Notes: generated by a model not told the origin, from the sequence alone. A stretch of DNA of 32,000 bases from Nostoc punctiforme PCC 73102 (GCF_000020025.1 NC_010628.1:1440001-1472000); one strand, 5' to 3'; counted from the first letter of the stretch, positions 3,303 to 28,706 are shown. Made by a program: numbers and translations.

Positions 3303-4770
<1,468 letters not shown>

Positions 4771-5290: not shown

Positions 5291-5545
5291 TGACTTCCCC
5301 ACTTCCCAGTAGTGTGAAAAACACTGAGTGATCGCTAATTTAATTTGGGTACTGAGTGCTGTGGGACGTGTAGCCAGTGCTGAGTAAAAAATACTAGTCT
5401 ATAATCCCCAATTCCTCTTTCATCTGTTCTGGTGTATATAGTTCATGATGGCTATTTACTTTTCAAGTGGGAGAACTTACACCATTTTGGGATTAATAAA
5501 TGTGAAACCTCTCTGAAGAGAACAGGCTCCAAAAGGATAAAAACC

Positions 5546-6514
5546 ATGCACCAGCAACTTTTTTGTAAAGTTGTAACCAATATTCTTGGTAGAAAGACTG
5601 CTTTTTTTACCTCAGTATTAGCGATCGCCATATTTGGCATGGCCTGTACTCCAACTCGTGAAAGTTCATCTGCAACTCAACCAAACACTGCTCAGTCGCC
5701 TGCTAGCACTAACAGTCAAGCTGGAGAAGAACAAGGAACCATTACAATGGCGGTGATTCCCTGGCAGGTTTCAGCCGAACAAGAAAAGAAACTCCAACCT
5801 TTGGCTGACTATTTGTCTAAGGCACTAAAACGACCCTTTAAATTTGAAATTACTAAGGACTACACAACAGCAGTTGATTTCTTAGTCACAGGAAAAGTTG
5901 ATCTTGCCTACCTTGGGCCCAGTAGCTATATCGAAGCTCATCTTCGCGATCCGAAGATTGAGCCACTCGTTTCACCAATTAATCAAGAGACGAAACGACC
6001 TTGGTACACATCTGTAATTATTGTCAGCAGAAATAGTAGAATCAAAACTCTACAAGACTTAAAGGGCAAGCGATTTGCTTTTGTGAGTAAGTTATCGACT
6101 TCTGGATTTGTGGCACCAATGGCTTACTTTCAGCAAATTGGTATCAATCCAGAAAGAGACTTTGCGAAAGTGGTTTTCTCTGGTAGCCATGATAAATCAA
6201 AGCAAGCTTTAGTGAATGGGGAAGTAGATGCGATCGCGGATGATCGGCGTTCATATACTGAGCAAGTCAAAGAAAAGAAGATTGACTCAACAAAATACAC
6301 AATTATCTGGGAATCTGTTCCACTTCCTAGCGTACCTCTTGCTGCTTCTAGTAAAGTTTCCGTCGAATTGAAAGATGCTTTGAAAAAAGCCCTAATTGAC
6401 GCACCAGTGAATCTTGTAGACCCATCAGGCAGTATTGGAGTTGGCTATACTTTGGTGCAAGACGGAGATTACGACATCGTTAGAGAGTTGCAAAAGCGAG
6501 TTTCCAGCAAATGA
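5546..6514 (+). CDS. Periplasmic substrate-binding protein, PhnD/phosphonate-ABC-type family (probable accessory sensor partner)
   Basis: After an N-terminal signal/lipoprotein-like segment (FFTSVLAIAIFGMAC), the sequence reads ITMAVIPWQVSAEQEKKLQPLADYL...VDLAYLGPSSYIEA...GKRFAFVSKLSTSGFVAPM...SGSHDKS. These are typical PhnD-like type-2 binding-protein motifs. ATG 5546 is preferred over the GTG at 5432. No permease or ATPase genes are adjacent. Confidence 0.8.
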   Translation: MHQQLFCKVVTNILGRKTAFFTSVLAIAIFGMACTPTRESSSATQPNTAQSPASTNSQAGEEQGTITMAVIPWQVSAEQEKKLQPLADYLSKALKRPFKFEITKDYTTAVDFLVTGKVDLAYLGPSSYIEAHLRDPKIEPLVSPINQETKRPWYTSVIIVSRNSRIKTLQDLKGKRFAFVSKLSTSGFVAPMAYFQQIGINPERDFAKVVFSGSHDKSKQALVNGEVDAIADDRRSYTEQVKEKKIDSTKYTIIWESVPLPSVPLAASSKVSVELKDALKKALIDAPVNLVDPSGSIGVGYTLVQDGDYDIVRELQKRVSSK

Positions 6515-6527
6515 GGCTAATCAAGAT

Positions 6528-9257: not shown

Positions 9258-10681
9258 ATATACCTGTTCTGGAGACAGGGGTAATTTTGATTGTGGATGA
9301 TAATCCCAATAATTTGGAAGTACTATCTGAAACATTAATGGATACAGGTTGGGAGATATTGATTGCTGTAAATGGTGAAGGTGCGATCGCTCAAGCTGAA
9401 TACGCTTGTCCTGATATCATACTTTTAGATGTAATGATGCCTGGAATTGACGGATTTACAGCCTGCCAGCGTTTAAAGTCAAATCCTGTAACCTGTGATA
9501 TCCCCATAATTTTTATGACAGCTCTTTCTGAAACTGTCGATAAAGTAAAGGGTTTGAGTTTGGGAGCAGTGGATTACATTACTAAACCGTTTGAGCATGA
9601 AGAAGTACTAGCTCGTATCAAGACACATCTACAAATCCGTAATCTAACTAAGCAACTGCAAACTCATAATCAGCAACTTCAACAAGAAATAGCCGACCGT
9701 CTTGCAGTCGAAACCAAGTTACAAAAGCTGACTCAGGAGTTAGAGCAAAGGGTAGAAGAACGTACTTTTCAACTATCTCAAGCACTTCATAATTTTCAAC
9801 AAGCTCAGGTTCGTCTGCTACAGCAAGAAAAGATGTCAACCCTTGGTGAGTTAGTTGCTGGAATTGCTCATGAAATTAACAATCCAGTCAACTTCATTTT
9901 AGGAAATCTTAATCACGCCTCTGAATATACCCAAAACTTTATTGATTTGTTTCAACTTTATCAACAATATTATCCTAATCCCGAAGTAGAAATTCAGCAA
10001 AAAATAGATGAAATTGATCTTGATTTCTTAATGCAAGATTCTCCGCAAATTATGTCGTCTATGTACAAAGGAACAAAGCGCCTAGCACAGATGATTCATT
10101 CGCTTAGGCATTTTTCACGTCGGGATGATTCAGTTGTACAACCTATAGATATTCATGAAGGTATTGATAGCACGCTATTAATTTTACAATATCGCTTAAA
10201 AGCGAATTCAGAACGTTCCGAAATTCAGATTATTAAACATTATGGAACTTTGCCACCTGTAGAATGTTTTCCAGGCCCACTGAATCAAGTTTTTATGAAT
10301 CTCCTTGCTAATGCAATAGATGCTATAGAGGAGTCATTTATTACTAACACAAACTTTTCCAAAATTGCATCAAGTAGTGTTCATTTGTTATCGGTAGAAG
10401 ACAACGGAAAAATCACGATTCGCACTGCTCTACATAAACAAGGCTCAGTTGTAGTAATTAAAATTGCTGATAATGGCATCGGCATGACAGAAGAAGTCAA
10501 ACAACGGTTATCTGAACCAATGTTTACTACCAAACCTGTAGGAAAAGGCACAGGGTTAGGTTTATCTATAAGTCGGCAAATTATTGAGGAAAAACATGGT
10601 GGGACTCTCTCTTTTGTATCTGAGCCGGGGAAAGGCACAGAATTTTGTATTGAAATTCCTGTACTAAGTCAAAAAGCATAA
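9254..10681 (+). CDS. Response-regulator receiver fused to a histidine kinase (REC, coiled coil, HisKA-like, HATPase_c)
   Basis: The REC domain reads ILIVDDNPNNLEVL...IILLDVMMPGIDGF...KPF. The H-box is AGIAHEINNPVNF, and the ATP-lid motifs are DNGIGM and GKGTGLGLSI. The start overlaps the upstream stop as ATGA (9254-9257), suggesting translational coupling. Confidence 0.9.
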   Translation: MNIPVLETGVILIVDDNPNNLEVLSETLMDTGWEILIAVNGEGAIAQAEYACPDIILLDVMMPGIDGFTACQRLKSNPVTCDIPIIFMTALSETVDKVKGLSLGAVDYITKPFEHEEVLARIKTHLQIRNLTKQLQTHNQQLQQEIADRLAVETKLQKLTQELEQRVEERTFQLSQALHNFQQAQVRLLQQEKMSTLGELVAGIAHEINNPVNFILGNLNHASEYTQNFIDLFQLYQQYYPNPEVEIQQKIDEIDLDFLMQDSPQIMSSMYKGTKRLAQMIHSLRHFSRRDDSVVQPIDIHEGIDSTLLILQYRLKANSERSEIQIIKHYGTLPPVECFPGPLNQVFMNLLANAIDAIEESFITNTNFSKIASSSVHLLSVEDNGKITIRTALHKQGSVVVIKIADNGIGMTEEVKQRLSEPMFTTKPVGKGTGLGLSISRQIIEEKHGGTLSFVSEPGKGTEFCIEIPVLSQKA

Positions 10682-10741
10682 ATAACTAGGCAGTTACAAA
10701 ACAGTCTAATCAACGTCGAAATGCAGCGCGATCGCTAATAA

Positions 10742-10779
10742 TTATCTTCAGTAAAAAATACATTTTTTACTGAAGATAA
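10742..10779. terminator. Long perfect palindrome, probable (bidirectional) intrinsic terminator after the kinase operon
   Basis: ttatcttcagtaaaaaat-ac-attttttactgaagataa has 18-nt perfect arms containing A/T runs. It lies 60 nt after the stop at 10681. Confidence 0.6.
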
Positions 10780-10967
10780 AGTATAAACATATAAAAAAGT
10801 CCTGCCTACTCTGTACAGATATAGCTATAAACCAGATTTAAATATATGATATGCGATCGCCACATCTCAATGCCCGATCGCCAAAAAATGATAATCTAGC
10901 ATTTTTCCCTAATCAGTTAAGATAATCTTCATCAATCTTCTTTCCTTTTACCCTTCTCCTTGGAATT

Positions 10968-13900
10968 ATGACGCAGAAAGAGTTATTGCAACTGATAGAT
11001 CGTGCCGTGGCTGAGGGTTGGCGAGAGTTAGACTTGTCGGGGCAAGAGTTGACTGAGTTACCTGTGGAAATTGGTAAGTTGCAGCAGCTTGAGTCTTTGA
11101 TTTTGGGAAAGAAGGTTGAAGGTTATGAACGAGTAGGAGACCACTTTCTCGAAAAGGTTTCGGGCAACAATTTAAAAACGCTTCCACTGGAACTATTGGG
11201 TTTGCCTAATTTGCGTAAGTTGGATATTAGTGGCAATCCTTTAGAGAGCATTCCCGATGTGGTAACGCAAATACTGCATTTAGAGGAACTTATCTTAATT
11301 CGAGTAGAGCTAACTGAAATACCTGATGCGATCGCTAATTTAACCAATCTGACGCAGCTTATCCTCAGTTACAACCAAATAACCCAGATTCCAGAGGCGA
11401 TCGCTAAATTAAGCAATCTGACTGTGCTTATCTTCAGTGACAACAAAATAACCCAGATTCCAGAGGCGATCGCTAATTTAACCAATCTGACGCGACTTAA
11501 CCTCAGTTCCAACCAAATAACCCAGATTCCAGAGGTGATCGCTAAATTAACCAATCTGACGCTGCTTTACCTCAGTGGCAATCAAATTACTGAGATACCA
11601 GAGGCGATCGCGCAATTAACCAATCTGACGCTGCTTGACCTCAGTGACAACAAAATAACCGAGATTCCAGAGGCGATCACGCAATCAACCAATCTGACGG
11701 TGCTTGACCTCAGTAGCAACCAAATTACTAAGATACCAGAGGCGATCGCACAATTAACCAATCTGAAGCTGCTTTACCTCAGTGACAACCAAATTACTGA
11801 GATACCAGAGGCGCTCGCTAATTTAACCAATCTGATGCAGCTTCACCTCAGTAGCAACCAAATTACTGAGATACCAGAGGCGCTCGCTAATTTAACCAAT
11901 CTGACGCAGCTTTACCTCAGTGGCAACCAAATTACCGAGATTCCAGAGGCGCTCGCTAATTTACCCAATCTGACGCGGCTTTACCTCTATAGCAACCAAA
12001 TTACTGAGATACCAGAGGCGCTCGCTAATTTAACCAATCTGATCCAACTTGTCCTCTTTTCCAACCAAATTGCCGAGATTCCAGAGACGCTCGCTAATTT
12101 AACCAATCTGATCCAACTTGTCCTCTTTTCCAACCAAATTGCCGAGATTCCAGAGACGCTCGCTAAATTAACCAATCTGACGCGGCTTGACCTCAGATTC
12201 AACCAAATAACCCAGATTCCAAAGGTGATCGCTAATTTAACCAATCTGACAGAACTTCACCTCAGTAGTAACCAAATAACCCAGATTCCAGAGGCGCTCG
12301 CTAATTTAACCAATCTGACACAGCTTTACTTCAGTTCCAACCAAATAACCCAGATTCCAGGGGCGATCGCTAAGTTAACCAATTTGACGCAGCTTGACCT
12401 CAGTGGCAACCAAATTACCGAGATTCCAGAGGCGATTGAAAGTTTGTCGAAATTGGAAAAACTAGATTTACGGGGAAATCCGCTTCCTATTTCACCAGAG
12501 ATTTTAGGATCTTCTGATGATGTTGGTTCAGTTGAAGATATTTTCAATTACTTGCAATTACTCCGTAGCGGTGAAGTGCGTCCACTCAACGAAGCCAAAC
12601 TCTTGCTCATCGGACAAGGCAGCGTCGGCAAAACATCTCTCATCAAGCGACTAATCCGCAATGAATATGATGAGAAACAACCCCAAACCGACGGACTCAA
12701 TGTAGAAACTTGGAACGTGCAGGTCAATAGCAAAGACATCCGCCTGAATGTTTGGGACTTTGGCGGACAGGAAATTTATCATGCCACTCATCAGTTTTTT
12801 CTAACTAAGCGCAGCCTCTATCTCTTAGTCTGTAATTGTCGCACCAGCGAAGAAGAAAACCGCATCGAATATTGGCTGAAACTAATCGAAAGCTTCGGCG
12901 GAGAGTCCCCCGTGATTATCGTTGGCAACAAAAAAGACGAACAACCCTTGGACATAAACCGCAAGGCATTACGCGAAAAATATCCTAACATCCAAGAGAT
13001 TATCGAAACCTCCTGCCAAGATAATATCGGCATTGATGAACTTCGCACCGCCATTTTCCAGCAAGTCGGCAACCTCAAAGAAGTCTACGATCTTCTACCC
13101 CTGACATGGTTTGAGGTTAAACAACAACTCGAATCCATGCCCCAAGACTTCATCAGCTACAACCGCTACATCGGCATCTGCCACGAAAACAAAATTCCTG
13201 AAGAACAAAACCAAGATCAACTCATCGATCTCCTCCATCGGCTTGGCTTAGTTCTCAACTTCCGCGAGCATCCCATCCTCAAAAATACCAACGTCCTCAA
13301 ACCCAACTGGGTGACAGAAGGCATTTACGCGCTCCTGAGCGATGAAACCCTTAAAACTAAAACCAAAGGTATTTTCACCCCTGCCGATCTCACCCGCATC
13401 CTCAATTCAGAGCGCTACCCGACCGAACGTCATGGTTATCTGATCGAACTAATGAAGGAATTCGAGCTTGGCTTTGCACTAGAATGTCAGCCACCACAAT
13501 TTCTGATTGCGGGACTTCTGCCTAAAGACCAACCAGACAAAACAGAACTCCACGGCGAAACCCTGGAATTTCAATACCATTACAAAGTTCTCCCCGAAAG
13601 CATCATCTCCCGCTTCATCGTCAAAACCCACGAAAAAATTCATAACCAAATCTATTGGCGCAGTGGCGTAATGCTGCAATATCAAGAAAACAACGAAATC
13701 TACAACATTGCTCGGATCAAAGCCGATCCCGAAGACAAAAAAATCTTCATCACTATTAGCGAACGCCAAGAAACCCGCCGCTTATTTCTCGGCATCCTCC
13801 GCGATGTCTTCCAAAAAATCCACAAAAGTCTCCCCAATCTCGAAATCACCGAATGGGTTCCCGTCCCCAACCATCCCAAACATCCACCCCTCGACTACCA

Positions 13901-14525
13901 AGAACTCCTCGGACTCGAATCAATGGGTGAAAGTACAGTCATCATCGGCAAACTAAAATTAAAACTCGATTTGCGTCAACTACTTGATGGGTATGAAGAT
14001 ATAAGAACTCGACAAAGACAACAAATAGACAAAGGAATTATTGAACCATTCCCCATTAAGGAAAAAATTATGTCCGAAAGTATCAGAAACCAAATATTTG
14101 TTAGCTACAGTCATCAAGATGCAAAATGGTTAGCAGAACTGCAAAAACAACTAAAACCCTATATTCGTGCAGAAGGTTTGATCGTTTGGGATGACACCAA
14201 AATCAAACCTGGCGCAGAATGGAAAGCCGAGATTGAAAAAGCATTAGCCACGGCTAAGATTGCTATCCTGCTAGTCAGCCCTAACTTTATAGCCTCTGAT
14301 TTCATCGACAGACATGAACTTCCCCCCTTACTCAACGCAGCCGAACAAGAGGGATTAACAATTATCTGGATTCCAATTAGTGCAAGCTCATATAGAAAAA
14401 CCGAGATCGAAAAATACCAAGCTGCTCACCCTTCAAATAAACCCCTCGACAGTCTAAGTAAGGGAGAACGTAACCAAGCTTGGGTGAAAATTTGCGAAGA
14501 AGTCGAAGAGGCAATAAATTCATAA
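10968..14525 (+). CDS. ROCO-family protein with C-terminal TIR domain (LRR x ~20, Roc GTPase, COR, TIR)
   Basis: About 20 units of a 23-aa LRR (LTNLTQLxLSxNQITEIPEAIAx) are followed by a Roc GTPase with P-loop GQGSVGKT (12612-12635), DFGGQE and NKKD. A COR-like region comes next. The TIR domain runs from ~14094 (IFVSYSHQDAKWL...VWDD...ILLVSPNFIASDFIDRHELPPLL) and has a Glu at the position of the TIR catalytic glutamate. Confidence 0.9.
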   Translation: MTQKELLQLIDRAVAEGWRELDLSGQELTELPVEIGKLQQLESLILGKKVEGYERVGDHFLEKVSGNNLKTLPLELLGLPNLRKLDISGNPLESIPDVVTQILHLEELILIRVELTEIPDAIANLTNLTQLILSYNQITQIPEAIAKLSNLTVLIFSDNKITQIPEAIANLTNLTRLNLSSNQITQIPEVIAKLTNLTLLYLSGNQITEIPEAIAQLTNLTLLDLSDNKITEIPEAITQSTNLTVLDLSSNQITKIPEAIAQLTNLKLLYLSDNQITEIPEALANLTNLMQLHLSSNQITEIPEALANLTNLTQLYLSGNQITEIPEALANLPNLTRLYLYSNQITEIPEALANLTNLIQLVLFSNQIAEIPETLANLTNLIQLVLFSNQIAEIPETLAKLTNLTRLDLRFNQITQIPKVIANLTNLTELHLSSNQITQIPEALANLTNLTQLYFSSNQITQIPGAIAKLTNLTQLDLSGNQITEIPEAIESLSKLEKLDLRGNPLPISPEILGSSDDVGSVEDIFNYLQLLRSGEVRPLNEAKLLLIGQGSVGKTSLIKRLIRNEYDEKQPQTDGLNVETWNVQVNSKDIRLNVWDFGGQEIYHATHQFFLTKRSLYLLVCNCRTSEEENRIEYWLKLIESFGGESPVIIVGNKKDEQPLDINRKALREKYPNIQEIIETSCQDNIGIDELRTAIFQQVGNLKEVYDLLPLTWFEVKQQLESMPQDFISYNRYIGICHENKIPEEQNQDQLIDLLHRLGLVLNFREHPILKNTNVLKPNWVTEGIYALLSDETLKTKTKGIFTPADLTRILNSERYPTERHGYLIELMKEFELGFALECQPPQFLIAGLLPKDQPDKTELHGETLEFQYHYKVLPESIISRFIVKTHEKIHNQIYWRSGVMLQYQENNEIYNIARIKADPEDKKIFITISERQETRRLFLGILRDVFQKIHKSLPNLEITEWVPVPNHPKHPPLDYQELLGLESMGESTVIIGKLKLKLDLRQLLDGYEDIRTRQRQQIDKGIIEPFPIKEKIMSESIRNQIFVSYSHQDAKWLAELQKQLKPYIRAEGLIVWDDTKIKPGAEWKAEIEKALATAKIAILLVSPNFIASDFIDRHELPPLLNAAEQEGLTIIWIPISASSYRKTEIEKYQAAHPSNKPLDSLSKGERNQAWVKICEEVEEAINS
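11200..12500 (+). repeat. 69-bp-period coding tandem repeat array (LRR units)
   Basis: About 18 consecutive 69-bp units are highly similar at the DNA level (…aatttaaccaatctgacgcagctt…aaccaaattac[ct]gagat[at]ccagaggcg[ac]tcgct…). Confidence 0.85.
12021..12158 (+). repeat. Perfect 69-bp tandem duplication (2 x 69 bp) inside the LRR array
   Basis: 12021-12089 and 12090-12158 are identical (ctcgctaatttaaccaatctgatccaacttgtcctcttttccaaccaaattgccgagattccagagacg). Together they encode LANLTNLIQLVLFSNQIAEIPET twice. Confidence 0.95.
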
Positions 14526-18999: not shown

Positions 19000-21153
19000 A
19001 TGACAAATATCTTTGGAACCAAGGGTAATGATACTCTCGTGGGCAGCGAATTATCGGATACAATCAATGGTCTTGCAGGCAACGATACCATTACACCTAA
19101 CCAGGGCAACGACACCGTAACTGGTGGTGGCGGCAAGGATCAATTTGTTTACAACTACAGTAACTACGCCGATGACACTGACACCATCACCGATTTCGGT
19201 GGTGTGGGTAAAGGAAGCAACCCAACACTAGGAGTTATTGCCGAAGTAGATACCATCAAATTCCAAGGTGCTAATTTTACTGCCCAAAATCTGCTACTTA
19301 CCCAGAATGGCAGCAATCTGGAAATCACTTTTGAAGGGGAGGCTAATCACAAAGTCATCCTAAAAAACTTTAAGTTAGAAAACTTGGAAAATCTAAAAGC
19401 TTCTGGAAACAGAGCAGCTATTGGTAATATCCTATTTGATGGGCAAACTAGCATCACCGATAGTTTTGATGTCTTTGATGCCAACTCCACTGAAACTAGC
19501 GTGTTCAACAAGAACACGGTGACTTTCCTCAATGACCTCGACAACAACATTACAGGTTTAGATAACTCAAATGATGTCATCAATGGTCAGGGCGGGAATG
19601 ACCGCATCGACGGCAAGAGTGGCAACGACTTGCTGAGGGGTGGTACGGGAAATGATACTCTCATTGGTGGTGCGGGTAGCGACACCCTTGTTGGTGATAC
19701 TGGCAATGACTCTCTCGACGGTGGTGCTGATAATGACTTGCTACGGGGTGGTGCAGGGAACAACATCCTCAACGGTGGTGCTGGTGACGATAACTTGAAT
19801 GTTGACTCTTCACCAGGCAATAATCTCTTGTCTGGTGGCGATGGCAATGATACTCTCTCGGCATTAGGTGACTACGAAGGTAATGTGGTGTCTGGTAATA
19901 ACACCCTCAACGGTGGCGCTGGTAACGATAGCTTGAGTGCTGACGGTTCCGCAGGCGATAACTTACTGGATGGTTCCAATGGCAATGATTATCTCTCTGC
20001 CTCTAGTAGCTACTACGACCCTAGAGTGTCTGGCAATAACACCCTCAAGGGTGGGGTTGGTGACGATACCTTGAGTGCCTTACTTTCAACAGGTAAGAAC
20101 TTCCTGGATGGTGGTGATAATAACGATTATCTCTCTGTCAATCTTTCCTCTGGTAATAACACCCTCAATGGTGGTGCTGGTAACGATTACTTGAGTGCTA
20201 ATATTTCAACAGGCAATAATCTGCTGTCTGGTGGCGATGGCAATGACTCTCTCTTTGCCTCAGAATTTGAGGGCTATAGGTTTGATAACACTTCAGGGAA
20301 TAACACCCTTAACGGTGGCGCTGGTAGCGATTACTTAAATGTTGACTATTCACGAGGCGCTAATCTACTTTCTGGCGGAGATGGCAATGATTCTCTCTCC
20401 GGTTCTAGCTACGGCCGCGGCTTCGGAGGAGCTTTTTATAACACTACTGGAAATAACACCCTTAACGGTGGCGCTGGTGACGATAATTTGAATGTTGATT
20501 ATTCAACGGGCGATAATCTACTCAATGGAGATAATGGCAATGATTATCTTTCAGCCTCTGGCTACAAATACGACAATTCTGGCGACGAACAAGGAGTTTA
20601 TCGCAGGACATCAGGCAATAACACCCTCAATGGTGGCGCTGGTGCTGATAAATTGATTGTTGATTATTCAACAGGCAATAACCTACTCTTGGGGGGTGAT
20701 GATAATGATTACATCTCTGCATTTGGCGCATTAGGCACTAATACCCTTAGTGGTGGCAATGGAAATGACACCCTCAAAGGTGGCAATGGAAATGATATTC
20801 TGACAGGTGGTTTTGGTAATGATAGCCTCTATGGAAATGATGGTATTGATACCTTTGTTTTCAATGGCTTCAATCAAGGTGTCGATCGTCTTTATGACTT
20901 CAACGTAACTAATGACCGGATTCAGGTATCGGCTGCTGATTTTGGTGGCGGGTTATCAATAGGTACACTTCAGCAAAGTCAGTTTATCGTCGGAACATCT
21001 GCAACGACAAGCAATCAACGATTTATCTATGATTTTTCTACAGGTGGACTGTTCTTTGACCAAGATGGCAGTGCATCTGCGTTTACTCAGGTAAAATTTG
21101 CCCAATTATCTGCTGGATTGTCACTAACCAACAACAATTTTGTCGTTGCTTGA
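19000..21153 (+). CDS. RTX-type (hemolysin-type) calcium-binding repeat protein, probable secreted or surface protein
   Basis: Many nonapeptide GGxGxDxL motifs are present (GGTGNDTLIGGAGSDTLVGDTGNDSLDGGADNDLLRGGAGNNILNGGAGDD…). About 11 larger modules end in SGNNTLNGGAGxDxL. The C-terminal non-repeat region (FVFNGFNQGVDRLYDF…FFDQDGS…) is typical of cyanobacterial T1SS-type substrates. There is no N-terminal signal peptide. Confidence 0.85.
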   Translation: MTNIFGTKGNDTLVGSELSDTINGLAGNDTITPNQGNDTVTGGGGKDQFVYNYSNYADDTDTITDFGGVGKGSNPTLGVIAEVDTIKFQGANFTAQNLLLTQNGSNLEITFEGEANHKVILKNFKLENLENLKASGNRAAIGNILFDGQTSITDSFDVFDANSTETSVFNKNTVTFLNDLDNNITGLDNSNDVINGQGGNDRIDGKSGNDLLRGGTGNDTLIGGAGSDTLVGDTGNDSLDGGADNDLLRGGAGNNILNGGAGDDNLNVDSSPGNNLLSGGDGNDTLSALGDYEGNVVSGNNTLNGGAGNDSLSADGSAGDNLLDGSNGNDYLSASSSYYDPRVSGNNTLKGGVGDDTLSALLSTGKNFLDGGDNNDYLSVNLSSGNNTLNGGAGNDYLSANISTGNNLLSGGDGNDSLFASEFEGYRFDNTSGNNTLNGGAGSDYLNVDYSRGANLLSGGDGNDSLSGSSYGRGFGGAFYNTTGNNTLNGGAGDDNLNVDYSTGDNLLNGDNGNDYLSASGYKYDNSGDEQGVYRRTSGNNTLNGGAGADKLIVDYSTGNNLLLGGDDNDYISAFGALGTNTLSGGNGNDTLKGGNGNDILTGGFGNDSLYGNDGIDTFVFNGFNQGVDRLYDFNVTNDRIQVSAADFGGGLSIGTLQQSQFIVGTSATTSNQRFIYDFSTGGLFFDQDGSASAFTQVKFAQLSAGLSLTNNNFVVA

Positions 21154-21196
21154 TGGTGATTGAAACTCTTCCATAACTAAACAGCAAAGATAGATT

Positions 21197-21222
21197 GCGA
21201 GGTACTATTTTCAGCACCTCGC
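21197..21222. terminator. Hairpin between convergent genes (candidate terminator)
   Basis: gcgaggt (21197-21203) pairs with acctcgc (21216-21222) across a 12-nt loop. It lies 44 nt after the RTX stop. Confidence 0.4.
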
Positions 21223-21382
21223 ATTCGTATTCATAAAGACATTAAGCTTAGTTCCTTAGCTTTAGGTATAGTCAGGTTATATCTGCATTCGCTATTTACG
21301 TAAGCGATCGCAATTTTGCCCACGATTCTCAAAATCGGCAGACGAAGGGTAAAAGCGTGAGAGTAGAGTTACTCTTGCCACT

Positions 21383-24300
21383 TTACCAAGGATTACCAAC
21401 CATTGTGAATCCAGACCAATAATAAGGATGGGTAAGTAATTGCTCCCCTTCATCAGCACTGTTAGTAGGTAAAGACAAGTTCCCCACTACTCCTAAACCT
21501 TCTAATTGACCATTTTTAACGTAAATCTGCCCTTTAGCCATAGCTACCTGAGCCTGTCTGAGGGCTTCTGCCTTAATTGGAGCTGTCCTCAAGTTTTGAT
21601 AAAATTTCGTCATCAAGGCTGCTGTACCGGCATCATTAACCGACCAAAGACTAGCAACACTAGTTTTCACGCCTGCCAGCACTGCTAAACCTGCAAATCC
21701 AAGCTCTGACTCTTCATCTCCTAATGCTGTTCTACAAGCACTCAGCACGAGCATTTCAACTTCGGGTTCATTAAAGCGCAACTGTCGTAATTGGTTCAAG
21801 CGTAACTTGTCCTCCCACAGTTGAATATAGGAATTACTCAAAGCGCCGGTAGTAAAATCGGCATGGGTTGCCATGTGAATAATCCCAAAAGGTTGTTGGC
21901 GGCGGATAGTTTTGAGATTTTCTAAGGTAGCTTGCTTGTCTAACAATAATTTGCCCTGCCAAAGTTTAGACACCAGTGTTGATAACTCTAGGGGAACTGC
22001 TGGTAAAGGCTCTTGTCCTTGTGTACTTTGAGAAACTCCCATCGCTAAGACTTGAGATTTTTTAATGTCTTTATAAAGAGTGTTAGTCAAGCTGATACTG
22101 GGCATCAAGCCAATGCTATATTTTTCTACTAGAAACCCCTTGCCATCATGAAGTGCTGCCATTGGAGTTGAACGTAACCCCATATCTGGTAAAAAGACCA
22201 AATTATTGATTTCTCTTGCCTGCAAATCTGCCTCTAATGGTGCAATAATCCAGCGATAAAGTTGTTGAGATGGACGCAAATAACCGGTGCGGCGACGGTT
22301 TTGTGGACTAACTATTTGGTCACGAAATTCCTGAGCTACTTGAATAACTTTGGCTTTGGTCGTTTCTGGAATGCGCTTGCGAATAGGGTTGCCTTTTCCA
22401 GTTACTACGACTATTTCTAGTTGGTCGCTATCCTGCTCTGCTAGAGTATTTAATTGTTTAGTAAATTTTTGAGCTTTGCCCAAATTTCTCTCTGGTATTA
22501 TCTCCACAGGAACAAAACTGATGTAAATAAATGCAGGTTTAACACCAGTCGCTTCTTCAATTTTGCGAGCAATTTCTTTGGCATCATCTAGTGTTTTAAT
22601 TCTAGGAGTCGGGATACCTAAATGGTCGGCAAAATCATCTGTGAATTTATCTTCGGGCGTGGGATCGGTATTAATAACGGGGTTGTCAATCTTAGGATTA
22701 TTGGGGTCAGGGACATTCGGTTTACCTGGAGTGCATTGGAATGAGCAAGGGGGAGGATTCGGGGTAAAAGTCGGAGTAGGAATTGTAGTAGGAATTGTAG
22801 TAGGAGTTGGGGTAGGAATGGTGGGAGGAATTTGGCTGACATTGATTCCGACCTGTACAGGTGCAGAAGACGAAACGCGGTCATTTGCACTAATTACAAA
22901 GGCATTTAGTGAACCATTTACATCAGTCGGAGGGGTATACACCAAAGTATCGTCGCTAGATAAGGTAGTGACACCAGGAATGACGGGAAGGCCATTGACA
23001 GTCAGATTTCCTGTATTCACCACATCAACCTGGATGGAGGTGATGTCATTATTAGCATCGCTGACCAGTGCAGCCAAACTAGAGAATGTCAAGGTCACTG
23101 GTTGATTGGTCTGGGTGTTGGGTAGCGATGAGTTTGCCGTTAATACAGGCGGAGTGTTGACGGAAGTAATGGTGATGCCGGTTGGGGTACCAATCGCATC
23201 TCCACCAGTTGGCAATACTGGAAAGTTACCCGAAGCGATAGTTGTACCGCCTCCCACATCAATTGTTCCAGCTGTGCCATTAGCACTCGTCGCATCACCT
23301 ACAATAAATGGCACGTTACCTGGACCACCATCATGTCGAATTGTGACAGTGCCTCCGGCGATGCTAGTGGTTACTCCTGCTCCAGAATCGAAAATTCCGC
23401 CGGTGGCGATGGTAGTACCTACCCCTATTCCTTGAACTAGTCCGTTTGTCAGCACTTGCACATTGCCACCTTGAACAGTGTTTCCATCAACAAAATCGTC
23501 TGCTACGGACTGTGTGTTGATGTTGGTAAAACTAATATTGCTACCAGCAGTATTGGTAGTCTGTAAAGTAACGTTGCCACCTGTAACATTTCCAGTTCCA
23601 TCGACTCCAATGGCGATCGCTGAGGCATTAATGGCATCATTAACGGTGATATTCTCTGTGGCAGTTAAGGTGACTGCGCCAGCCGTACCAGTAAAATCGC
23701 CACCTCCGGTCTTGAATACAGATGAGTTAATCGCCCCAGTGGTAATACTACCTGCTGTAGTTGTTGCAACTATATCGCCACCACGACCTAAGCTACCAGC
23801 ATCACTGGAAAAGGAATTAATTCTATCTGTGAGGATATTGCCTGCCGCAGTCAAAGTCACTGTCCCTGCGGTGTTGACACCATTATTACCAGTATCACTG
23901 GTGTTAATCTGATTAAGAGTAATTCCACCATTGCTACTTACGACTTGAACATTACCTGCTGAATAGCCTTGTCCACTGGCAATAATGTTACCTGTACTAA
24001 TATTGCCGGTCGTCGCAGACAAAGTTATATCCCCGCTTCTAGCGAAATTACGAGTTGTGTTTAGATTTCCTAGTAATAAGCTGGCTCCTGAAATATTAAT
24101 GGCTCCTCCGGTTGTCTGGATTGTGTTGGTAGGGTCAACAAAGTTCACAGAACCGTTTTGTGAGGTTAGGCTGAAGCTACCACCGCCCAAGTTTAAAGTA
24201 GCAACACCAGCGGTAGTCACTCCGGGTGTAGCTCCGGTGATGTCATTGATTGTAATATTGCCTATAGCCTGTAAATTGATATTTACACCCGAAGCTGCGA

Positions 24301-26497
24301 TCGCACCCCAAGAAACGGTGTTAGCCCCAATATCTGGATCGTTAAAGGCAATGTTGCCTGCTGTGGCATCAAAATCACCTGTCCCTGCTGCGGCATCGAT
24401 AATAGTTAATGTGCTGGGGTCTAGTAATAAAGTGCCAAAGCTGCCATTAGGGGCTGAAGCATCTACTAAACCGTTGAAGGTTAAGAAATTTTTGCCTGAT
24501 ACTTCTACAAAACCACCATTCCCGGCATTTGCTCCTCCACGAGCCGAAATTTTACCAAAATATTGAGTTGTGTCGTTACCCCAAACAATTACCTGTCCGC
24601 CATTTCCATTCAAATGGCTATCGGCATTAATGACTGACTTTGAGTCAACATAAGTCCGATCTGCGTTGGGTACAGTCCCCTTACCTTGGTAATCACCGCC
24701 AATTAGCACAGTACCACCGCCATTCGTTCCAGAGGCGTTAATATTGGCATCAACCAGCGCAACTTTTTTACCCAAAGCAGTTACCGTACCGCCTGTTTGA
24801 CTTGATACATCTACTTTGCCTGAAACAATTGTTGTCCCTGGAGTTGTGGGAATTGTGACGTTAGAGCCTGTCAATTTTACAGTCCCATCAGGATTGGCAG
24901 TTAACCCTGTGTTACCAACTGTGAGCAATTCAGGTATTGAGGCGATGGGAATTGTCCAGTTATTGGGTTGGGTGCTACTAGAGGCGAGGGGCTGAATTTC
25001 CAGACTCAGCAGATTTCCTGGCTGACTGAGACGCACCCAATTTTGTCCTGGTACGGATGTGATAGAAATCTGCCCTCCCGGTGCCGAAAGTTGCCCGGTG
25101 TTGACTACAGTACCACCCAATAAATTTAAATTTTGCCCAACACCTACTGCCAAATTTCCAGCATTGGCGATCGCTCCTGGCTGGTTCATACTAAAGGCAA
25201 ATCCGTTGGGGTTTCCAACTAAAGCAGCGTAGTCATTAACACCAATGGCATTGAACCAACTGCTGCCAAAACCAATGCCATTGGCTGTTGTCACTGTGAA
25301 AGCACCAGGCACATTTAAGGTGGCGTTTGATCCAAAAATAAATCCGGCTGGATTCATCAAGAAAAGGTTAGCATTGCCACCTGTTACCTGAATTAAGCCA
25401 TTGATAACCGAGGCATTCCCGCCTGTAATTCGACCAAGGATATTTTGTAGTGCCGGACTAGCTTGGAAATTGGCGATTTGTTCTGGTGAAATCCCAAACT
25501 GTTGAAAGCTGTGGAAGAGGTTAGCACCATCTCCAGAAGTTATACCCCCGGTGATATCTAGTCGATTACCATTGGGTGTAACAATTGTGTTTGTCCCATC
25601 GGCAGCAGGGACAATTTGTTGTGCCTGAGATAATCCCATGCTCGTGACTGTCACTAAAGGCAAAATAGCTAGGACTGAAGCGGCGATTTTGTGTAGTAGA
25701 GGTTTTTTACGCCGCAAGATGAAGCGACCTGCGGGCAATTCCACATCGATTTGTAACTTTTCTGCTAATCCGCGTCGCCAAAGTGCTTGAGCGATCGCCT
25801 TCTGTGACCAGAGTATTTGTTCTGTTCTTCTGGTGACAGACATGCTTTGAGAGTGAAGCCGATAGAGGTAGAGTGGCTCTTGCACTCGGCGCACCTGGGT
25901 TACTTCTGAAAGTCGCAGACATAGGTCATAATCATAGGCACAACCAGAGAACGATTCGTTAAAACCTCCCACTCGGTCGTAAACCGACCGCCGCATCAGG
26001 CGGAAGTGAAACGTCATGAAGTTTACCAAAAGATTGTCTTGGGAGTAAGCAATATTACAGCGATGACCGTAGCCTATGACAATACCCTTTTCATCAATAT
26101 TTAAGTAGTCGGTGTAAACAAATCCCGTTTCTGGGTGGCGATTCAGTACTGTAGCGGTTTGGGCAAGGGCGGTGGGGGCTAGGATATCATCACTGTCTAC
26201 TATACCGATGTAAATGCCACTAGTTTGGGCGATCGCTGCCTTACAAGCCGCAGAAACTCCTTGATGCTGTGCTTCTACTACCCGCACTCGCCCATCTTGT
26301 TGAGCATAAGCGTTTGCGATCGCCACCGATCCGTCTGTGGAGCCATCATCCCAAATTAGTAGCTCAAAGTCTTGCCATGTTTGTGCTAATACGCTAGCGA
26401 TCGCTACCCCAAGGTAAGACTCCCGGTTGTAATTGACGATGACTATGGAGATCAGTGGTGGCATCGAAGTATTCTCAAGTTTTCTACCTGTTATCAC
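21383..26497 (-). CDS. Giant TpsA-type exoprotein read in frame as glycosyltransferase family 2, internal signal peptide, TPS (hemagglutination-activity) domain, beta-helical repeats, Pro/Thr linker and C-terminal CHAT protease domain
   Basis: The GT2 motifs are ISIVIVNYNRESYL and LLIWDDGSTDGS…IVDSDD. They are followed by RRKKPLLHKIAASVLAILPLVTVTSMGLSQAQQ, a typical signal peptide. The TPS-domain block is NRLDITGG…GANLFHSFQQF…NILGRITGGNASVINGLIQV…ANLFLMNPAGFIFG. Long G/N/T-rich beta-helix repeats and the linker IPPTIPTPTPTTIPTTIPTPT come next. The CHAT region has HMATHA (His) and LVLSACRTA (Cys). An in-frame TTG at 25717 would start a conventional signal-peptide-first TpsA. Confidence 0.85.
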   Translation of the reverse strand: MITGRKLENTSMPPLISIVIVNYNRESYLGVAIASVLAQTWQDFELLIWDDGSTDGSVAIANAYAQQDGRVRVVEAQHQGVSAACKAAIAQTSGIYIGIVDSDDILAPTALAQTATVLNRHPETGFVYTDYLNIDEKGIVIGYGHRCNIAYSQDNLLVNFMTFHFRLMRRSVYDRVGGFNESFSGCAYDYDLCLRLSEVTQVRRVQEPLYLYRLHSQSMSVTRRTEQILWSQKAIAQALWRRGLAEKLQIDVELPAGRFILRRKKPLLHKIAASVLAILPLVTVTSMGLSQAQQIVPAADGTNTIVTPNGNRLDITGGITSGDGANLFHSFQQFGISPEQIANFQASPALQNILGRITGGNASVINGLIQVTGGNANLFLMNPAGFIFGSNATLNVPGAFTVTTANGIGFGSSWFNAIGVNDYAALVGNPNGFAFSMNQPGAIANAGNLAVGVGQNLNLLGGTVVNTGQLSAPGGQISITSVPGQNWVRLSQPGNLLSLEIQPLASSSTQPNNWTIPIASIPELLTVGNTGLTANPDGTVKLTGSNVTIPTTPGTTIVSGKVDVSSQTGGTVTALGKKVALVDANINASGTNGGGTVLIGGDYQGKGTVPNADRTYVDSKSVINADSHLNGNGGQVIVWGNDTTQYFGKISARGGANAGNGGFVEVSGKNFLTFNGLVDASAPNGSFGTLLLDPSTLTIIDAAAGTGDFDATAGNIAFNDPDIGANTVSWGAIAASGVNINLQAIGNITINDITGATPGVTTAGVATLNLGGGSFSLTSQNGSVNFVDPTNTIQTTGGAINISGASLLLGNLNTTRNFARSGDITLSATTGNISTGNIIASGQGYSAGNVQVVSSNGGITLNQINTSDTGNNGVNTAGTVTLTAAGNILTDRINSFSSDAGSLGRGGDIVATTTAGSITTGAINSSVFKTGGGDFTGTAGAVTLTATENITVNDAINASAIAIGVDGTGNVTGGNVTLQTTNTAGSNISFTNINTQSVADDFVDGNTVQGGNVQVLTNGLVQGIGVGTTIATGGIFDSGAGVTTSIAGGTVTIRHDGGPGNVPFIVGDATSANGTAGTIDVGGGTTIASGNFPVLPTGGDAIGTPTGITITSVNTPPVLTANSSLPNTQTNQPVTLTFSSLAALVSDANNDITSIQVDVVNTGNLTVNGLPVIPGVTTLSSDDTLVYTPPTDVNGSLNAFVISANDRVSSSAPVQVGINVSQIPPTIPTPTPTTIPTTIPTPTFTPNPPPCSFQCTPGKPNVPDPNNPKIDNPVINTDPTPEDKFTDDFADHLGIPTPRIKTLDDAKEIARKIEEATGVKPAFIYISFVPVEIIPERNLGKAQKFTKQLNTLAEQDSDQLEIVVVTGKGNPIRKRIPETTKAKVIQVAQEFRDQIVSPQNRRRTGYLRPSQQLYRWIIAPLEADLQAREINNLVFLPDMGLRSTPMAALHDGKGFLVEKYSIGLMPSISLTNTLYKDIKKSQVLAMGVSQSTQGQEPLPAVPLELSTLVSKLWQGKLLLDKQATLENLKTIRRQQPFGIIHMATHADFTTGALSNSYIQLWEDKLRLNQLRQLRFNEPEVEMLVLSACRTALGDEESELGFAGLAVLAGVKTSVASLWSVNDAGTAALMTKFYQNLRTAPIKAEALRQAQVAMAKGQIYVKNGQLEGLGVVGNLSLPTNSADEGEQLLTHPYYWSGFTMVGNPW

Positions 26498-26670
26498 AAT
26501 ATAATGCTAAGGGCTATCACTTAGAAGAAATTGCTGTTAATTATTGTTTTAGTTACAAATCTTCTGAAATGTGAATGTTAAAAATATGATATTGAAATAT
26601 TCATACAGCCATAGCACACTCAAAAATCAAAATTAGCCCAGTCGTAAAATAAGGCACCCACTGAGGAGAA

Positions 26671-28506
26671 ATGAGAAAAGAAACAGAAACTGGCATTAAG
26701 CCGAAAACAATTACTCAGAAAAGCATTGTCTGTTTCTCTCATCAGTTAAATACTTGGCAAAGTCTAGCAATTACTAGATGGAATAAGCACAGCTTCAGTT
26801 TTCAGTGTGGCTTGCTAATTCTGCCTGCGGTCTGGATTGTAACTGCAAATGGACTGAGAGCTACGGCGAATATATTGACACCAGACTCAACCCAAAAGAG
26901 TATTCAGTCAGAGTTACAAATAGTACAGGCATCAGAAACTGCCCCGGAAAATAACCCCAATCAAGCCGAACCAAATCCCCAACCAGAAACACCACAACGA
27001 ATTCGGGTTCGCAAAATCCAGGTTGTAGATAGCACAGTTTTTAATGAAAATGACTTTAATCCAGTTGTCAAACCCTTTGAAGAACGGGACTTAACTTTAG
27101 AAGAAATCAGACAAGCCGCAGATGCTATTACCCAGCTTTACTTAAATAAAGGCTATATAAATTCCAGAGCAGTTCCAGACATTCAGCAACCTAGTACCGC
27201 CGATGGTGTTGTGGTAATTCGGGTAATTGAAGGGCGTTTGACAGACATTGAGATCGAAGGGACGCGACGATTAAATCCATCTTATGTTCGTAGTCGCATC
27301 CAATTAGGTGCCGGTACTCCTCTGAATACTAGTAAGCTCGAAGATCAACTGAAACTGTTGCGACTCGATCCCTTATTTACAAATATAGAAGCACGTCTGC
27401 GTCCAACGGGTAAGGTTGGTCAAAGTGTTCTCATTGTCAGAGTTGAAGAGGCCAACCCTTTAACTGGTAGCTTGGGTGTAGATAATTATTCGCCTCCGAG
27501 TATTGGTGCGGAAAGATTGGGTATTGAACTGCGCGATCGCAATTTAACCGGGATGGGAGATGAGTTAGCCGGCTCCTATTACCACACCCTCTCTGGTGGT
27601 TCCGATGCCTTTGATTTTAGCTATCAAATTCCTGTGAACGCGATGAATGGCAAAGTGCAGATTAGAACCGCATTTAATCGCAACGAAATCACTGAGGCAC
27701 CCTTTGATGCTTTTGGCATTCGCGCCAACCAGGATCTTTATGAAATTAATTATCGTCAACCATTGATGCGATCGCCAAGAGAAGAATTTGCCCTATCTTT
27801 GGGATTTACCTATCAAGATGGTCAAACCTTCCTCTTCGAAAACCTGGCAACCCCCTTTGGCATTGGGACTGATGCCAATGGCGTTAGCCGCACCAGTGTA
27901 ATTAAATTTGGTCAAGACTATACTAAGCGCGAACCTCAAGGAGCTTGGTTTTTGCGATCGCAATTTAATTTTGGTATTGACGTATTAGATGCAACTATCA
28001 ACAATGACCCCATACCCGATGGTCGCTTTTTCAGTTGGTTGGGTCAAATACAGCGCGTGCAGCAACTCAGCGCCGATCATCTGTTACTTATCCAAGCAGA
28101 CTTGCAGCTAACACCAGATAGCCTTTTACCCTCCCAGCAATTCGTTATTGGCGGTGGACAGTCTGTAAGGGGATATCGGCAAAATATCCGCTCAGGGGAT
28201 AATGGATTTCGTGTAGCGATCGAAGATCGGTTCACAGTCCAGCGTAATGAATCTGGATTATCCATAATTCAACTTGCGCCATTTCTGGATATGGGATCTG
28301 TATGGAATCAGTCTAATAATCCCAATCGGCTGCCCGATCAAACTTTTTTGGTGGGTGCAGGCTTAGGATTATTATGGAATCAGGCAATGGGAATTGATAA
28401 TCTGTTTTTACGGCTCGATTATGGATTTCCATTTATCGATCTGAGCGATCGCGGCAATAACGCTCAGGATGATGGCTTTTACTTTAGCCTTCGCTATCAA
28501 CCTTAG
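26671..28506 (+). CDS. TpsB outer-membrane transporter (ShlB/FhaC/HecB family, POTRA plus beta-barrel)
   Basis: A POTRA-like region (IRVRKIQVVDSTVFNENDFNPVVKPFEERDLTLEEIRQAADAITQLYLNKGYINSRAV…VIRVIEGRL) is followed by barrel motifs (FVIGGGQSVRGY), and the protein ends in an aromatic-rich strand …FYFSLRYQP. It is divergent from the TpsA gene. The exact start is uncertain. Confidence 0.85.
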   Translation: MRKETETGIKPKTITQKSIVCFSHQLNTWQSLAITRWNKHSFSFQCGLLILPAVWIVTANGLRATANILTPDSTQKSIQSELQIVQASETAPENNPNQAEPNPQPETPQRIRVRKIQVVDSTVFNENDFNPVVKPFEERDLTLEEIRQAADAITQLYLNKGYINSRAVPDIQQPSTADGVVVIRVIEGRLTDIEIEGTRRLNPSYVRSRIQLGAGTPLNTSKLEDQLKLLRLDPLFTNIEARLRPTGKVGQSVLIVRVEEANPLTGSLGVDNYSPPSIGAERLGIELRDRNLTGMGDELAGSYYHTLSGGSDAFDFSYQIPVNAMNGKVQIRTAFNRNEITEAPFDAFGIRANQDLYEINYRQPLMRSPREEFALSLGFTYQDGQTFLFENLATPFGIGTDANGVSRTSVIKFGQDYTKREPQGAWFLRSQFNFGIDVLDATINNDPIPDGRFFSWLGQIQRVQQLSADHLLLIQADLQLTPDSLLPSQQFVIGGGQSVRGYRQNIRSGDNGFRVAIEDRFTVQRNESGLSIIQLAPFLDMGSVWNQSNNPNRLPDQTFLVGAGLGLLWNQAMGIDNLFLRLDYGFPFIDLSDRGNNAQDDGFYFSLRYQP

Positions 28507-28667
28507 AGGATGTTTGAAAAGTATTTCGCTGTGACTTTAGGCACTTTTAGATCCCCTCTAACCCCCCTTAAAAAGGGTGGAACTGGAGTAAAAGTCCCCC
28601 TTCTTAAGGGGGATTTAGGAGGATCTAGAACATTTTGCTACCGAGAAGAGGACTTTTCAAACATCCT
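28507..28667. mobile_element. MITE-like element with 16-17-bp perfect terminal inverted repeats and CTTAG target duplication, inserted at the TpsB stop codon
   Basis: aggatgtttgaaaagt (28507-28522) and acttttcaaacatcct (28652-28667) are perfect inverted repeats. The flanking direct repeat cttag occurs at 28502-28506 and 28668-28672. The left copy contains the TAG stop of the TpsB gene. The interior carries ccccct…aggggg hairpins. Confidence 0.7.
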
Positions 28668-28706
28668 CTTAGGCAATTTCCGTTAATAAATCTACCGCCA
28701 CCGTTG

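Follow-up and report, generated by a model that had tools for sequence, protein, structure and literature searches.

How can the exoprotein of a two-partner secretion (TPS) system be exported if a complete cytoplasmic enzyme stands in front of its signal peptide? This question is raised by a gene on the minus strand of a 32,000-nucleotide stretch of Nostoc punctiforme PCC 73102 DNA (GCF_000020025.1 NC_010628.1:1440001-1472000; referred to below as the window). The gene, at 21383..26464, specifies a precursor of 1693 amino acids (aa) that contains, in order, a family 2 glycosyltransferase (GT2) domain, a linker, an internal signal-peptide-like segment, a TPS secretion domain, a repetitive passenger, a spacer, and a caspase-like protease domain of the CHAT type. 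TpsA preproteins are exported through Sec by means of an N-terminal signal peptide and then by TpsB (PMC5422565); in a 2017 review of TPS, the signal peptides described are all N-terminal, in some cases with a short extension, and no fusion of a glycosyltransferase to TpsA is mentioned (PMC5422565). Textbook type V substrates begin with a signal peptide, whereas the fused family of filamentous cyanobacteria puts a complete, selected cytoplasmic enzyme before it. No description of a glycosyltransferase-TpsA fusion or of TPS-CHAT proteins was found in the literature searched, and the GT2-TpsA-CHAT fusion is a real, conserved, and apparently undescribed variant of two-partner secretion.

The reading frame and its conservation

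The open reading frame (ORF) spans 21383..26497 on the minus strand and runs for 1704 codons from an upstream in-frame GTG at 26497, which adds 11 aa to the product that begins at ATG 26464 (MPPLISIVIVNYN...). The ATG is the likely start; it is preferred because all aligned homologs begin there and gene callers give the 1693-aa product. (Pfam residue ranges of the precursor are in GTG numbering, and all other aa positions are in ATG numbering, to which GTG numbering adds 11.) Within the 1704-aa frame, Pfam finds Glycos_transf_2 (PF00535) at 17-176 with an E value of 4e-31, the TPS domain (PF05860) at 299-496 with E 1.9e-43, and CHAT (PF12770) at 1408-1702 with E 5.6e-76, covering 288 of 289 profile positions. 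NCBIfam adds a match to the filamentous-hemagglutinin N-terminal domain (TIGR01901, E 4.6e-22). The divergent neighbor, at 26671..28506 on the plus strand, encodes a TpsB transporter of 611 aa with matches to POTRA_2 (PF08479, E 1.7e-19) and ShlB (PF03865, E 8e-31). The original prediction, made from the sequence alone, had proposed a two-partner secretion pair with a CHAT cargo, in which a GT2 precedes a signal peptide and TPS domain in one stop-free frame. The Pfam matches bear out the first of these claims and the open 1704 codons the second; frame and domain identities are both direct observations.

An architecture this odd could reflect an artefact of assembly or sequencing, or two genes between which this strain alone has recently lost a stop codon, but beyond the oddity itself nothing speaks for such an explanation, and it is refuted. 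Public assemblies made independently of one another contain the identical 1693-aa product in at least 23 cases (the 23 contigs examined, from 34 blocks, on which it is called), and the same uninterrupted fusion is found in about 30 other species, at 52-96% GT2 identity. The missed stop or frameshift that the original prediction had allowed for is excluded by these data. In all four places viewed in detail, TpsB adjoins the identical product.

The extent of conservation comes from a genome scan that used one genome per species, to which all locus counts refer. Besides the window's own gene, 33 loci have both GT2 and TPS, and in 33 of 33 the two lie in one frame with no stop between them. Complete proteins running from GT2 to CHAT number 25, including that of the window (L001), and are 1519-2150 aa long. 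The scan contains no locus in which a GT2 of the fused-family type and a TPS domain are encoded by separate neighboring genes. No such GT2 lies within 10 kb of the loci with TPS-CHAT only, and the GT2-only loci lack TPS; the two domains are therefore either fused or not together. That every locus with both domains has a single frame clearly favors a real, selected fusion, and the GT2-signal peptide-TPS arrangement is kept in about 30 cyanobacterial species.

Database searches gave a similar picture. Residues 1-520 retrieved dozens of cyanobacterial proteins with both GT2 and TPS Pfam domains at 44-86% identity, from Nostoc, Hassallia, Kovacikia, Stenomitos, Chroococcidiopsis, Dolichospermum, Coleofasciculus, and others. 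The database used for this search lists nothing longer than 897 aa, not even the window's product, and the genome scan is preferred because the protein search is biased towards fragments. Among 50% identity clusters of 1.84 billion proteins, about 40 score at the level to be expected of GT2 plus TPS (more than about 390 bits), and in about 25 of these a single aligned stretch spans both domains, with lengths of up to 3394 aa. The nearest species-level genomes, those of Nostoc sp. NMS2 and Nostoc sp. P8256, have 91-97% aa identity in GT2, TPS, and CHAT. From locus to locus the identities of these three domains fall in step, which fits one gene evolving as a unit. Every domain of the precursor is under purifying selection: the median ratio of nonsynonymous to synonymous substitution rates (dN/dS) among eleven Nostoc-clade orthologs is 0.18 for GT2, 0.24 for the linker and signal peptide, 0.08 for TPS, 0.28 for the passenger, and 0.09 for CHAT. 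Conservation and selection are thus observed directly, as are the catalytic residues described below.

The junction and its proposed processing

The linker and internal signal-peptide-like segment occupy aa 246-281 (25622..25729, minus strand), as delimited by the sequence and the ortholog alignment. The junction reads ...GRFILRRKKPLLHK-IAASVLAILPLVTV-TSMGLSQA/QQIVPAADGT..., where the slash marks the predicted signal peptidase I cut between Ala281 (codon 25624-25622) and Gln282 (25621-25619). It consists of a basic n-region (LRRKK), an h-region (IAASVLAILPLVTV) that contains Pro, and a c-region (TSMGLSQA) with small residues at -3 and -1. The precursor has just one strongly hydrophobic stretch, which lies here at aa 260-281 (IAASVLAILPLVTVTSMGLSQA) and is followed by QQIVPAADGT. 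Alignment of the orthologs places Ala at -3 in 23 of 25, Ala at -1 in 24 of 25, and Gln at +1 in 24 of 25. The TPS-CHAT paralogs that lack GT2 begin with Met, a basic n-region, and an h-region, and have the same ...A-x-A/Q-x-I-x-P-A-x-DGT junction, as in MTANKLHLLGWLFIVGWLSAAAGSANA/QPIAPAADGT. The c-regions are also alike, being polar and often charged both in the fused orthologs (SPRLAQA) and in the GT2-less paralogs (THRAQA, NRVQA). The shared junction shows that the internal hydrophobic segment descends from a signal peptide and is a homolog of those at the N-termini of the GT2-less paralogs; this homology and the AxA/Q site are visible in the alignment itself. The distribution of charge, positive before the segment and negative after it, likewise fits a signal peptide. 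The segment is nevertheless internal (aa 250-281), behind the 245-aa GT2 and directly before the TPS domain, rather than N-terminal. Export by the twin-arginine translocation (Tat) pathway was rejected, since the RR of LRRKK is not conserved outside the Nostoc clade.

The reading that we favor, with a probability of roughly 0.55, is that a single precursor inserts by its internal signal peptide and is cut by signal peptidase to give a membrane-attached GT2 and a TpsA-CHAT protein exported by TpsB. Translation from ATG 26464 would yield one 1693-aa precursor, whose first 245 residues would fold in the cytoplasm as an active glycosyltransferase of the GT-A (GT2) type, a relative of the C-terminal domain of K4 chondroitin polymerase (K4CP). 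A short basic linker would lead into what is in effect an ordinary TpsA Sec signal peptide, with an RRKK n-region, an h-region of ~14 residues, and a c-region ending in A-Q-A. Because this signal peptide is internal, it would insert N-in/C-out, and Sec would move the ~1400-aa C-terminal part into the periplasm. Signal peptidase I would then cleave after Ala281, and the freed TpsA, whose N-terminus would be Gln282 at the very start of the TPS domain, would dock on the neighboring TpsB and be exported to the cell surface with the CHAT cysteine protease at its distal end. The GT2 would remain at the cytoplasmic face of the inner membrane, held by the signal-peptide helix. The outcome would be two proteins from one gene, made in a fixed 1:1 stoichiometry at the same translocon.

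Much of this scheme has counterparts in known systems. Like the type Vb systems (FhaB/FhaC) and the GT2-less cyanobacterial TPS-CHAT proteins, the precursor has a TPS domain with NPxGF/NPNGF motifs directly after an AxA/Q site, a long repetitive passenger, a C-terminal functional domain, and (in Nostoc) an adjacent POTRA_2 and ShlB protein; it differs from type Vb precursors in that its signal peptide lies behind a 245-aa folded cytoplasmic enzyme. Polyproteins that are split at an internal signal peptide include Bradyrhizobium FbcH, which gives rise to cytochromes b and c1, and the processed AcsAB/BcsAB cellulose synthase fusion. As is proposed for the Nostoc gene, one gene with an internal signal-peptide-like segment specifies an N-terminal product that stays in the cytoplasm or membrane and a C-terminal one that reaches the periplasm. 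However, these proteins belong to other families, none of which feeds type V secretion, and their processing has been demonstrated, whereas that of the Nostoc precursor is only predicted. If the proposed processing is correct, the Nostoc precursor joins the natural bacterial cases in which signal peptidase makes two proteins out of the product of a single gene.

The same segment could instead act as a permanent signal-anchor, in which case the product would be an uncleaved bitopic inner-membrane protein with GT2 in the cytoplasm and the rest outside, perhaps threaded through TpsB to form a tethered surface protease. This is consistent with a single hydrophobic segment that has positive charges on its N-terminal side (the net charge is positive before the segment, with a median of +3, and slightly negative after it), and bitopic proteins with large N-terminal cytoplasmic enzyme domains, such as PknB-type kinases and ToxR, are common. 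We nonetheless consider it unlikely. The AxA/Q site is conserved as strictly as in the paralogs that have a genuine N-terminal signal peptide, and the Pro in the h-region and the polar, often charged c-region are as in cleaved signal peptides. In particular, the TPS motif (I-x-P-A-x-DGT) starts within a few residues of the AxA site in most complete orthologs. An uncleaved chain would therefore hold the TPS domain at the inner membrane, beyond the reach of the POTRA domains of an outer-membrane TpsB, and it is chiefly for this reason that cleavage is preferred to a permanent anchor. In the AlphaFold2 model the predicted local distance difference test score (pLDDT) is below 50 for aa 257-280, and the model is therefore uninformative on the conformation of the segment. 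One fused ortholog, in Scytolyngbya sp. HA4215-MV1 (L036 ~10720-11430), has a hydrophobic segment directly after GT2, then a ~190-aa insertion rich in Pro, Ser, and Glu, a second AQA/I site, and the TPS domain; it is the one fused ortholog in which a long spacer sets the membrane segment apart from TPS.

The original prediction had offered only a choice between such an anchor and a TpsA product started at an in-frame TTG at 25717, and so missed a precursor cut at the conserved AxA/Q site. According to the second of these ideas, two products would arise from one frame, GT2 from ATG 26464 and TpsA from an internal start (the TTG, here), and the missing stop would simply be tolerated. The TTG does exist (25717-25715, Leu250) and precedes the n-region in frame, and the TPS-CHAT paralogs without GT2 manage with an ordinary signal peptide at the N-terminus. 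As a start for TpsA, however, it fares poorly. The Leu250 TTG is confined to the Nostoc clade, and the alignment contains no conserved internal start codon at the junction, since the linkers of 21 of the 25 orthologs have no Met. GT2 and the hydrophobic segment are 25 to 246 aa apart, depending on the ortholog, and the sequence between them never contains a stop or leaves the frame; the frame has thus survived many indels of a fast-evolving linker in about 30 species, and no case of separate genes was found. The synonymous rate (dS) at the junction is 0.69, with no drop that would mark an embedded ribosome-binding site or promoter (a weak test, with only 36 codons), and a scan for promoter-like sites found no more of them than in shuffled sequence and none near 25717. 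On these two grounds an embedded promoter or ribosome-binding site at the junction was rejected.

A locus from Nostoc sp. MG11 (L061 10001-10430) also bears on this point. Here the GT2 is lost after residue ~55 and replaced by ~90 unrelated codons rich in Lys, Glu, and Gly, but reading from the original Met still meets no stop before the end of CHAT, passing through the signal peptide and TPS, whereas both other frames contain several stops. This is as expected if TpsA can be translated only from the upstream ATG. Two products from one frame are, in our estimate, a shade less probable even than a permanent anchor.

The glycosyltransferase and its coupling to the exoprotein

The GT2 domain occupies aa 1-245 (25730..26464, minus strand) and has the motifs WDDGS (aa 38-42), DSDD (aa 90-93), and DYDLCLR (aa 178-184). 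All 25 complete orthologs have D40, D90, D92, D93, and D178, and 23 of them have D39. In a sequence search of the PDB, the best match is the C-terminal catalytic domain of K4CP (chain residues 374-602, E 1.5e-37), whose DSDD motif aligns with that of the GT2. An AlphaFold2 model of residues 1-398 has a mean pLDDT of 78, with values of mostly 80-94 in the GT2 (aa 1-250), and a Foldseek search with the model again returns K4CP first (E 1.6e-20, root-mean-square deviation 2.0 Å over 256 columns), followed by SpsA, WrtF, heparosan synthase, and TarP, which are GT-A enzymes that act on glycans or polymers; the probability is 1.00 for K4CP, SpsA, TarP, and heparosan synthase. As modeled, the domain is a complete GT-A fold. 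NCBIfam reports weak matches to the polysaccharide-type GT2 enzymes TuaG, EpsE, WcaA, and PglI.

If the GT2 were catalytically irrelevant, it could serve only as an N-terminal extension that delays export or sets its timing, much as the extended signal peptide regions of FhaB and some autotransporters do on a far smaller scale. The extended signal peptides of TpsA proteins delay export and cleavage (PMC5422565), and the TpsA-CHAT part of the L061 locus persists without an intact GT2. This explanation is improbable, however, because the residues that bind the nucleotide sugar and metal (DDGS, DSDD) and further motifs vary little or not at all in 25 orthologs down to 52% identity, because the GT2 has the low dN/dS given above, and because the whole GT-A fold is retained. 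Purifying selection, intact catalytic residues, and a complete fold argue instead that the GT2 is functional, as the favored reading assumes.

The relatives of the enzyme bear on its possible target. In the HMW1 system, the operon also encodes a cytoplasmic enzyme that glycosylates HMW1 (PMC5422565), and the original prediction had drawn on this analogy. The HMW1A/B/C and EtpBAC systems do resemble the Nostoc locus in that a cytoplasmic glycosyltransferase is genetically tied to a TpsA, but HMW1C and EtpC are separate gene products, whereas the Nostoc GT2 is covalently fused upstream of the signal peptide and its glycosylation of TpsA is putative. HMW1C and EtpC are N-glycosyltransferases of the GT41 type. 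No HMW1C-like match to the GT2 appears among the hits from Pfam, NCBIfam, or the PDB (by sequence or Foldseek), and a protein N-glycosyltransferase of this type was rejected on the basis of the Pfam GT2 assignment, the GT-A fold, and the nearness of the K4CP domain. At the family level, then, the HMW1 analogy is weak, since the GT2 most resembles a domain of the glycan-elongating type.

K4CP itself (PDB 2Z86/2Z87) is alike in sequence over the whole domain, in structure (to within the 2.0 Å noted above), and in the DSDD motif of its C-terminal domain, which we take to be the glucuronic acid (GlcA)-transferase. It is a soluble or peripheral two-domain polymerase, whereas the Nostoc GT2 has only one domain and continues into a signal peptide and exoprotein. 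K4CP alternately transfers N-acetylgalactosamine (GalNAc) and GlcA through its two domains (PMC13411425). This two-domain layout resembles that of the nearest unfused GT2 paralogs of cyanobacteria, which are soluble tandem proteins with two to three copies of the K4CP-like module (P0012, P0021, P0022, P0091, and P0100; loci L037-L060), one of which, P0022, ends in a C-terminal sulfotransferase domain. Their sequences suggest that these tandem proteins are synthases of glycosaminoglycan-like, possibly sulfated, polymers. Together with the kinship of the fused GT2 to glycosaminoglycan polymerase domains, the sulfotransferase-bearing tandem paralogs hint at polymers of this kind in cyanobacteria. 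Single-domain relatives of the GT2 were found by the genome scan in Desulfobacterales and Planctomycetota. Some of the unfused tandem paralogs are annotated as 'filamentous hemagglutinin outer membrane protein', probably through annotation transfer from the fused family.

Conservation of the fusion implies that GT2 activity is tied to the exoprotein. The enzyme might glycosylate the passenger before or during export, or it might build or modify an envelope glycan that the exoprotein binds or acts on. Either way, if the proposal holds, it represents a new coupling of a glycosyltransferase to an exported adhesin or protease, one that is physical and stoichiometric instead of operon-based. A more specific version of this coupling, which we put forward tentatively and as less probable than the general scheme, has two forms. 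In one, the exoprotein would be self-glycosylating: the GT2 would fold first, act in cis on its own unfolded passenger in the cytoplasm, and be clipped off by signal peptidase during exit through Sec and TpsB. In the other, the stub that stays behind would modify the envelope glycan of the producing cell itself and so confer immunity or mark the cell as self, with one such stub made for every CHAT protein exported (1:1). We know of no secretion pathway in which an enzyme-substrate fusion is separated by a signal peptide.

A number of points weigh against the reading that we favor. Its topology, cleavage, secretion and TpsB dependence, GT2 activity, and acceptor are steps that we infer, and the purpose of coupling GT2 to the exoprotein is the weakest step of the model. 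Sequence comparison indicates that the nearest relatives of the GT2 elongate glycans rather than modify proteins, and a signal-peptide-anchored GT2 stub might be degraded after cleavage. About 10% of the fused loci (L023, L029, L033, and L061) are shortened or decayed, so the gene is not indispensable. In neighbor-joining trees without support values, the fused and unfused proteins interleave in a poorly resolved TPS tree, and most fused GT2s group together, with two outliers, in the GT2 tree. Several distant fused loci have no TpsB in the flanks covered, which extend 10 kb on both sides in some and less in others, and conserved accessory glycosylation genes were not found beside the fused genes of distant species (nine loci). 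Finally, the one passenger feature tried, the Pro/Thr spacer, does not correlate with the presence of GT2, and no other passenger feature that does was found.

Some of these points are accompanied by observations of their own. The two trees leave a single origin of the fusion undemonstrated. The idea of conserved accessory genes was rejected, because the immediate neighbors of the nine distant fused loci are mutually unrelated (with domains named by sequence reading); at one Coleofasciculus fused locus, two neighboring ORFs look like glycosyltransferases by the same kind of reading. In Nostoc spongiaeforme (L024 7989-9749) and Anabaena minutissima (L028 7987-9789), the divergent neighbor is a protein of ~590 aa whose sequence reads as that of a secreted TPR protein and not as a TpsB, and in the former a second, GT2-less TPS-CHAT gene (L024 15246-18608) lies directly downstream of the fused gene. 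Two genes, in Calothrix sp. C42_A2020_038 (L033) and Kovacikia minuta CCNUW1 (P0043), specify only GT2, linker, and signal peptide (351 and 323 aa, respectively) and stop a few residues into TPS. Both appear to be decayed loci that have kept the part with GT2 and signal peptide; near L033 there are only fragments of TpsB.

The exported part, its partner, and the surrounding window

The TPS domain (aa 288-485; 25010..25603, minus strand) has the motifs NPAGF at aa 371 and NPNGF at aa 418. It is followed by a repetitive passenger rich in Gly, Asn, Thr, and Ser (aa ~486-1209; 22838..25009, minus strand), recognized in the translation and homologous to the passengers of other TPS-CHAT proteins. 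No Pfam family matches aa ~500-1200 of the precursor at E<=0.01; from its sequence, the passenger, which the original prediction had described as a beta-helix of ~1000 aa, is presumed to be a beta-helical stalk that ends in an Ig-like-looking segment. Next comes a spacer rich in Thr, Pro, and Ile (aa ~1210-1239; 22748..22837, minus strand), encoded in part by a 12-bp tandem repeat. The repeat, which the original prediction had named as encoding this linker, was found at 22775-22832 (period 12, 4.8 copies) and encodes a (TIPT)n spacer. The linker is not peculiar to the GT2-fused proteins, since equally Pro/Thr-rich but compositionally different spacers are found in both fused orthologs and GT2-less paralogs. 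Among the fused orthologs the repeat units vary (PETPN, PIDR, PTD, poly-P), and the best 30-aa window reaches at least 50% Pro plus Thr in about one in two fused orthologs and in the majority of the paralogs without GT2. A role for the spacer as the target of GT2 was rejected, since its occurrence does not track GT2 between these two groups.

The CHAT domain lies at aa 1397-1691 (21392..22276, minus strand). Its dyad comprises His1530/His1534 in HMATHA (His1534 codon, 21865-21863) and Cys1577 in LSACRTA (codon 21736-21734). Both His residues of HMATHA and the Cys of LSACRTA are invariant in 25 of 25 orthologs, and the intact dyad noted in the original prediction is confirmed. Other CHAT/clan CD proteases, such as HetF and Csx29 ('Craspase'), likewise have a CHAT domain with a His/Cys dyad, but they are a cytoplasmic regulator and a CRISPR-associated protease, respectively, whereas the Nostoc CHAT domain would be the distal cargo of a predicted secreted TpsA. 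If the proposed processing is correct, it offers a handle on the biology of the very numerous cyanobacterial TPS-CHAT surface proteins.

The TpsB partner has an N-terminal extension of ~45 aa, a signal peptide, POTRA_2, and a ShlB/Omp85 barrel. The extension (window 26671-26810), which begins MRKETETG..., precedes the hydrophobic core of the signal peptide, CGLLILPAVWIVTANGLRATA, and is conserved in the TpsB orthologs of L005-L013, L034, and L061. With this extension in TpsB and the GT2 in TpsA, both partners have unusual regions before their signal peptides. Adjacency of TpsB is kept at loci of Nostoc, Mojavia, Aulosira, Plectonema, Anabaena azotica, and Scytolyngbya. The two genes diverge, as had been predicted, from an intergenic region at 26465..26670, but this region is 206 bp long with the ATG start and has the predicted length of 173 bp only if GTG 26497 is used. 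A divergent spacing of 206-207 bp recurs in several Nostoc orthologs. The region contains one weak promoter-like match (minus strand, 26568-26540), and the total number of such matches is no higher than in shuffled sequence.

Immediately 3' of tpsB, at window 28508-28670, lies a palindromic element of ~160 bp that resembles a miniature inverted-repeat transposable element (MITE), with arms GAGGATGTTTGAAAAGT ... ACTTTTCAAACATCCTC. Logan contigs that contain a 100%-identical 7554-bp segment all end or switch flank at window positions 21119 and 28672. The break at 28672 adjoins this MITE-like palindrome, and that at 21119 falls within an RTX gene that probably has paralogs; mobility of the segment as a cassette was set aside, since the breaks are probably assembly ends at repeats. 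One Logan contig (L001) continues into unrelated genes (NMT1, dCache-GGDEF, desaturase, pyruvate kinase, and M61 peptidase), and the segment may have a second genomic context.

The RTX gene (19000-21153, plus strand) encodes a calcium-binding repeat protein of 717 aa (HemolysinCabind, E 3.7e-62) and is convergent with the TpsA gene, from which it is separated by a terminator-like hairpin at 21196-21223. Farther away on the plus strand are genes for a VWA-domain protein (3337-4770) and a phosphonate-type periplasmic binding protein (5432-6514), followed by two consecutive hybrid histidine kinase genes at 6435-9257 (HAMP-HisKA-HATPase-REC) and 9254-10681 (REC-HisKA-HATPase); all of these appear unrelated to the GT2-TpsA finding. 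A ROCO protein of 1185 aa is encoded at 10968-14525 (plus strand), with leucine-rich repeats, a Roc GTPase, COR-A/COR-B, and a C-terminal TIR domain. Its layout recalls NLR and other defense architectures, and its TIR end is effector-like.

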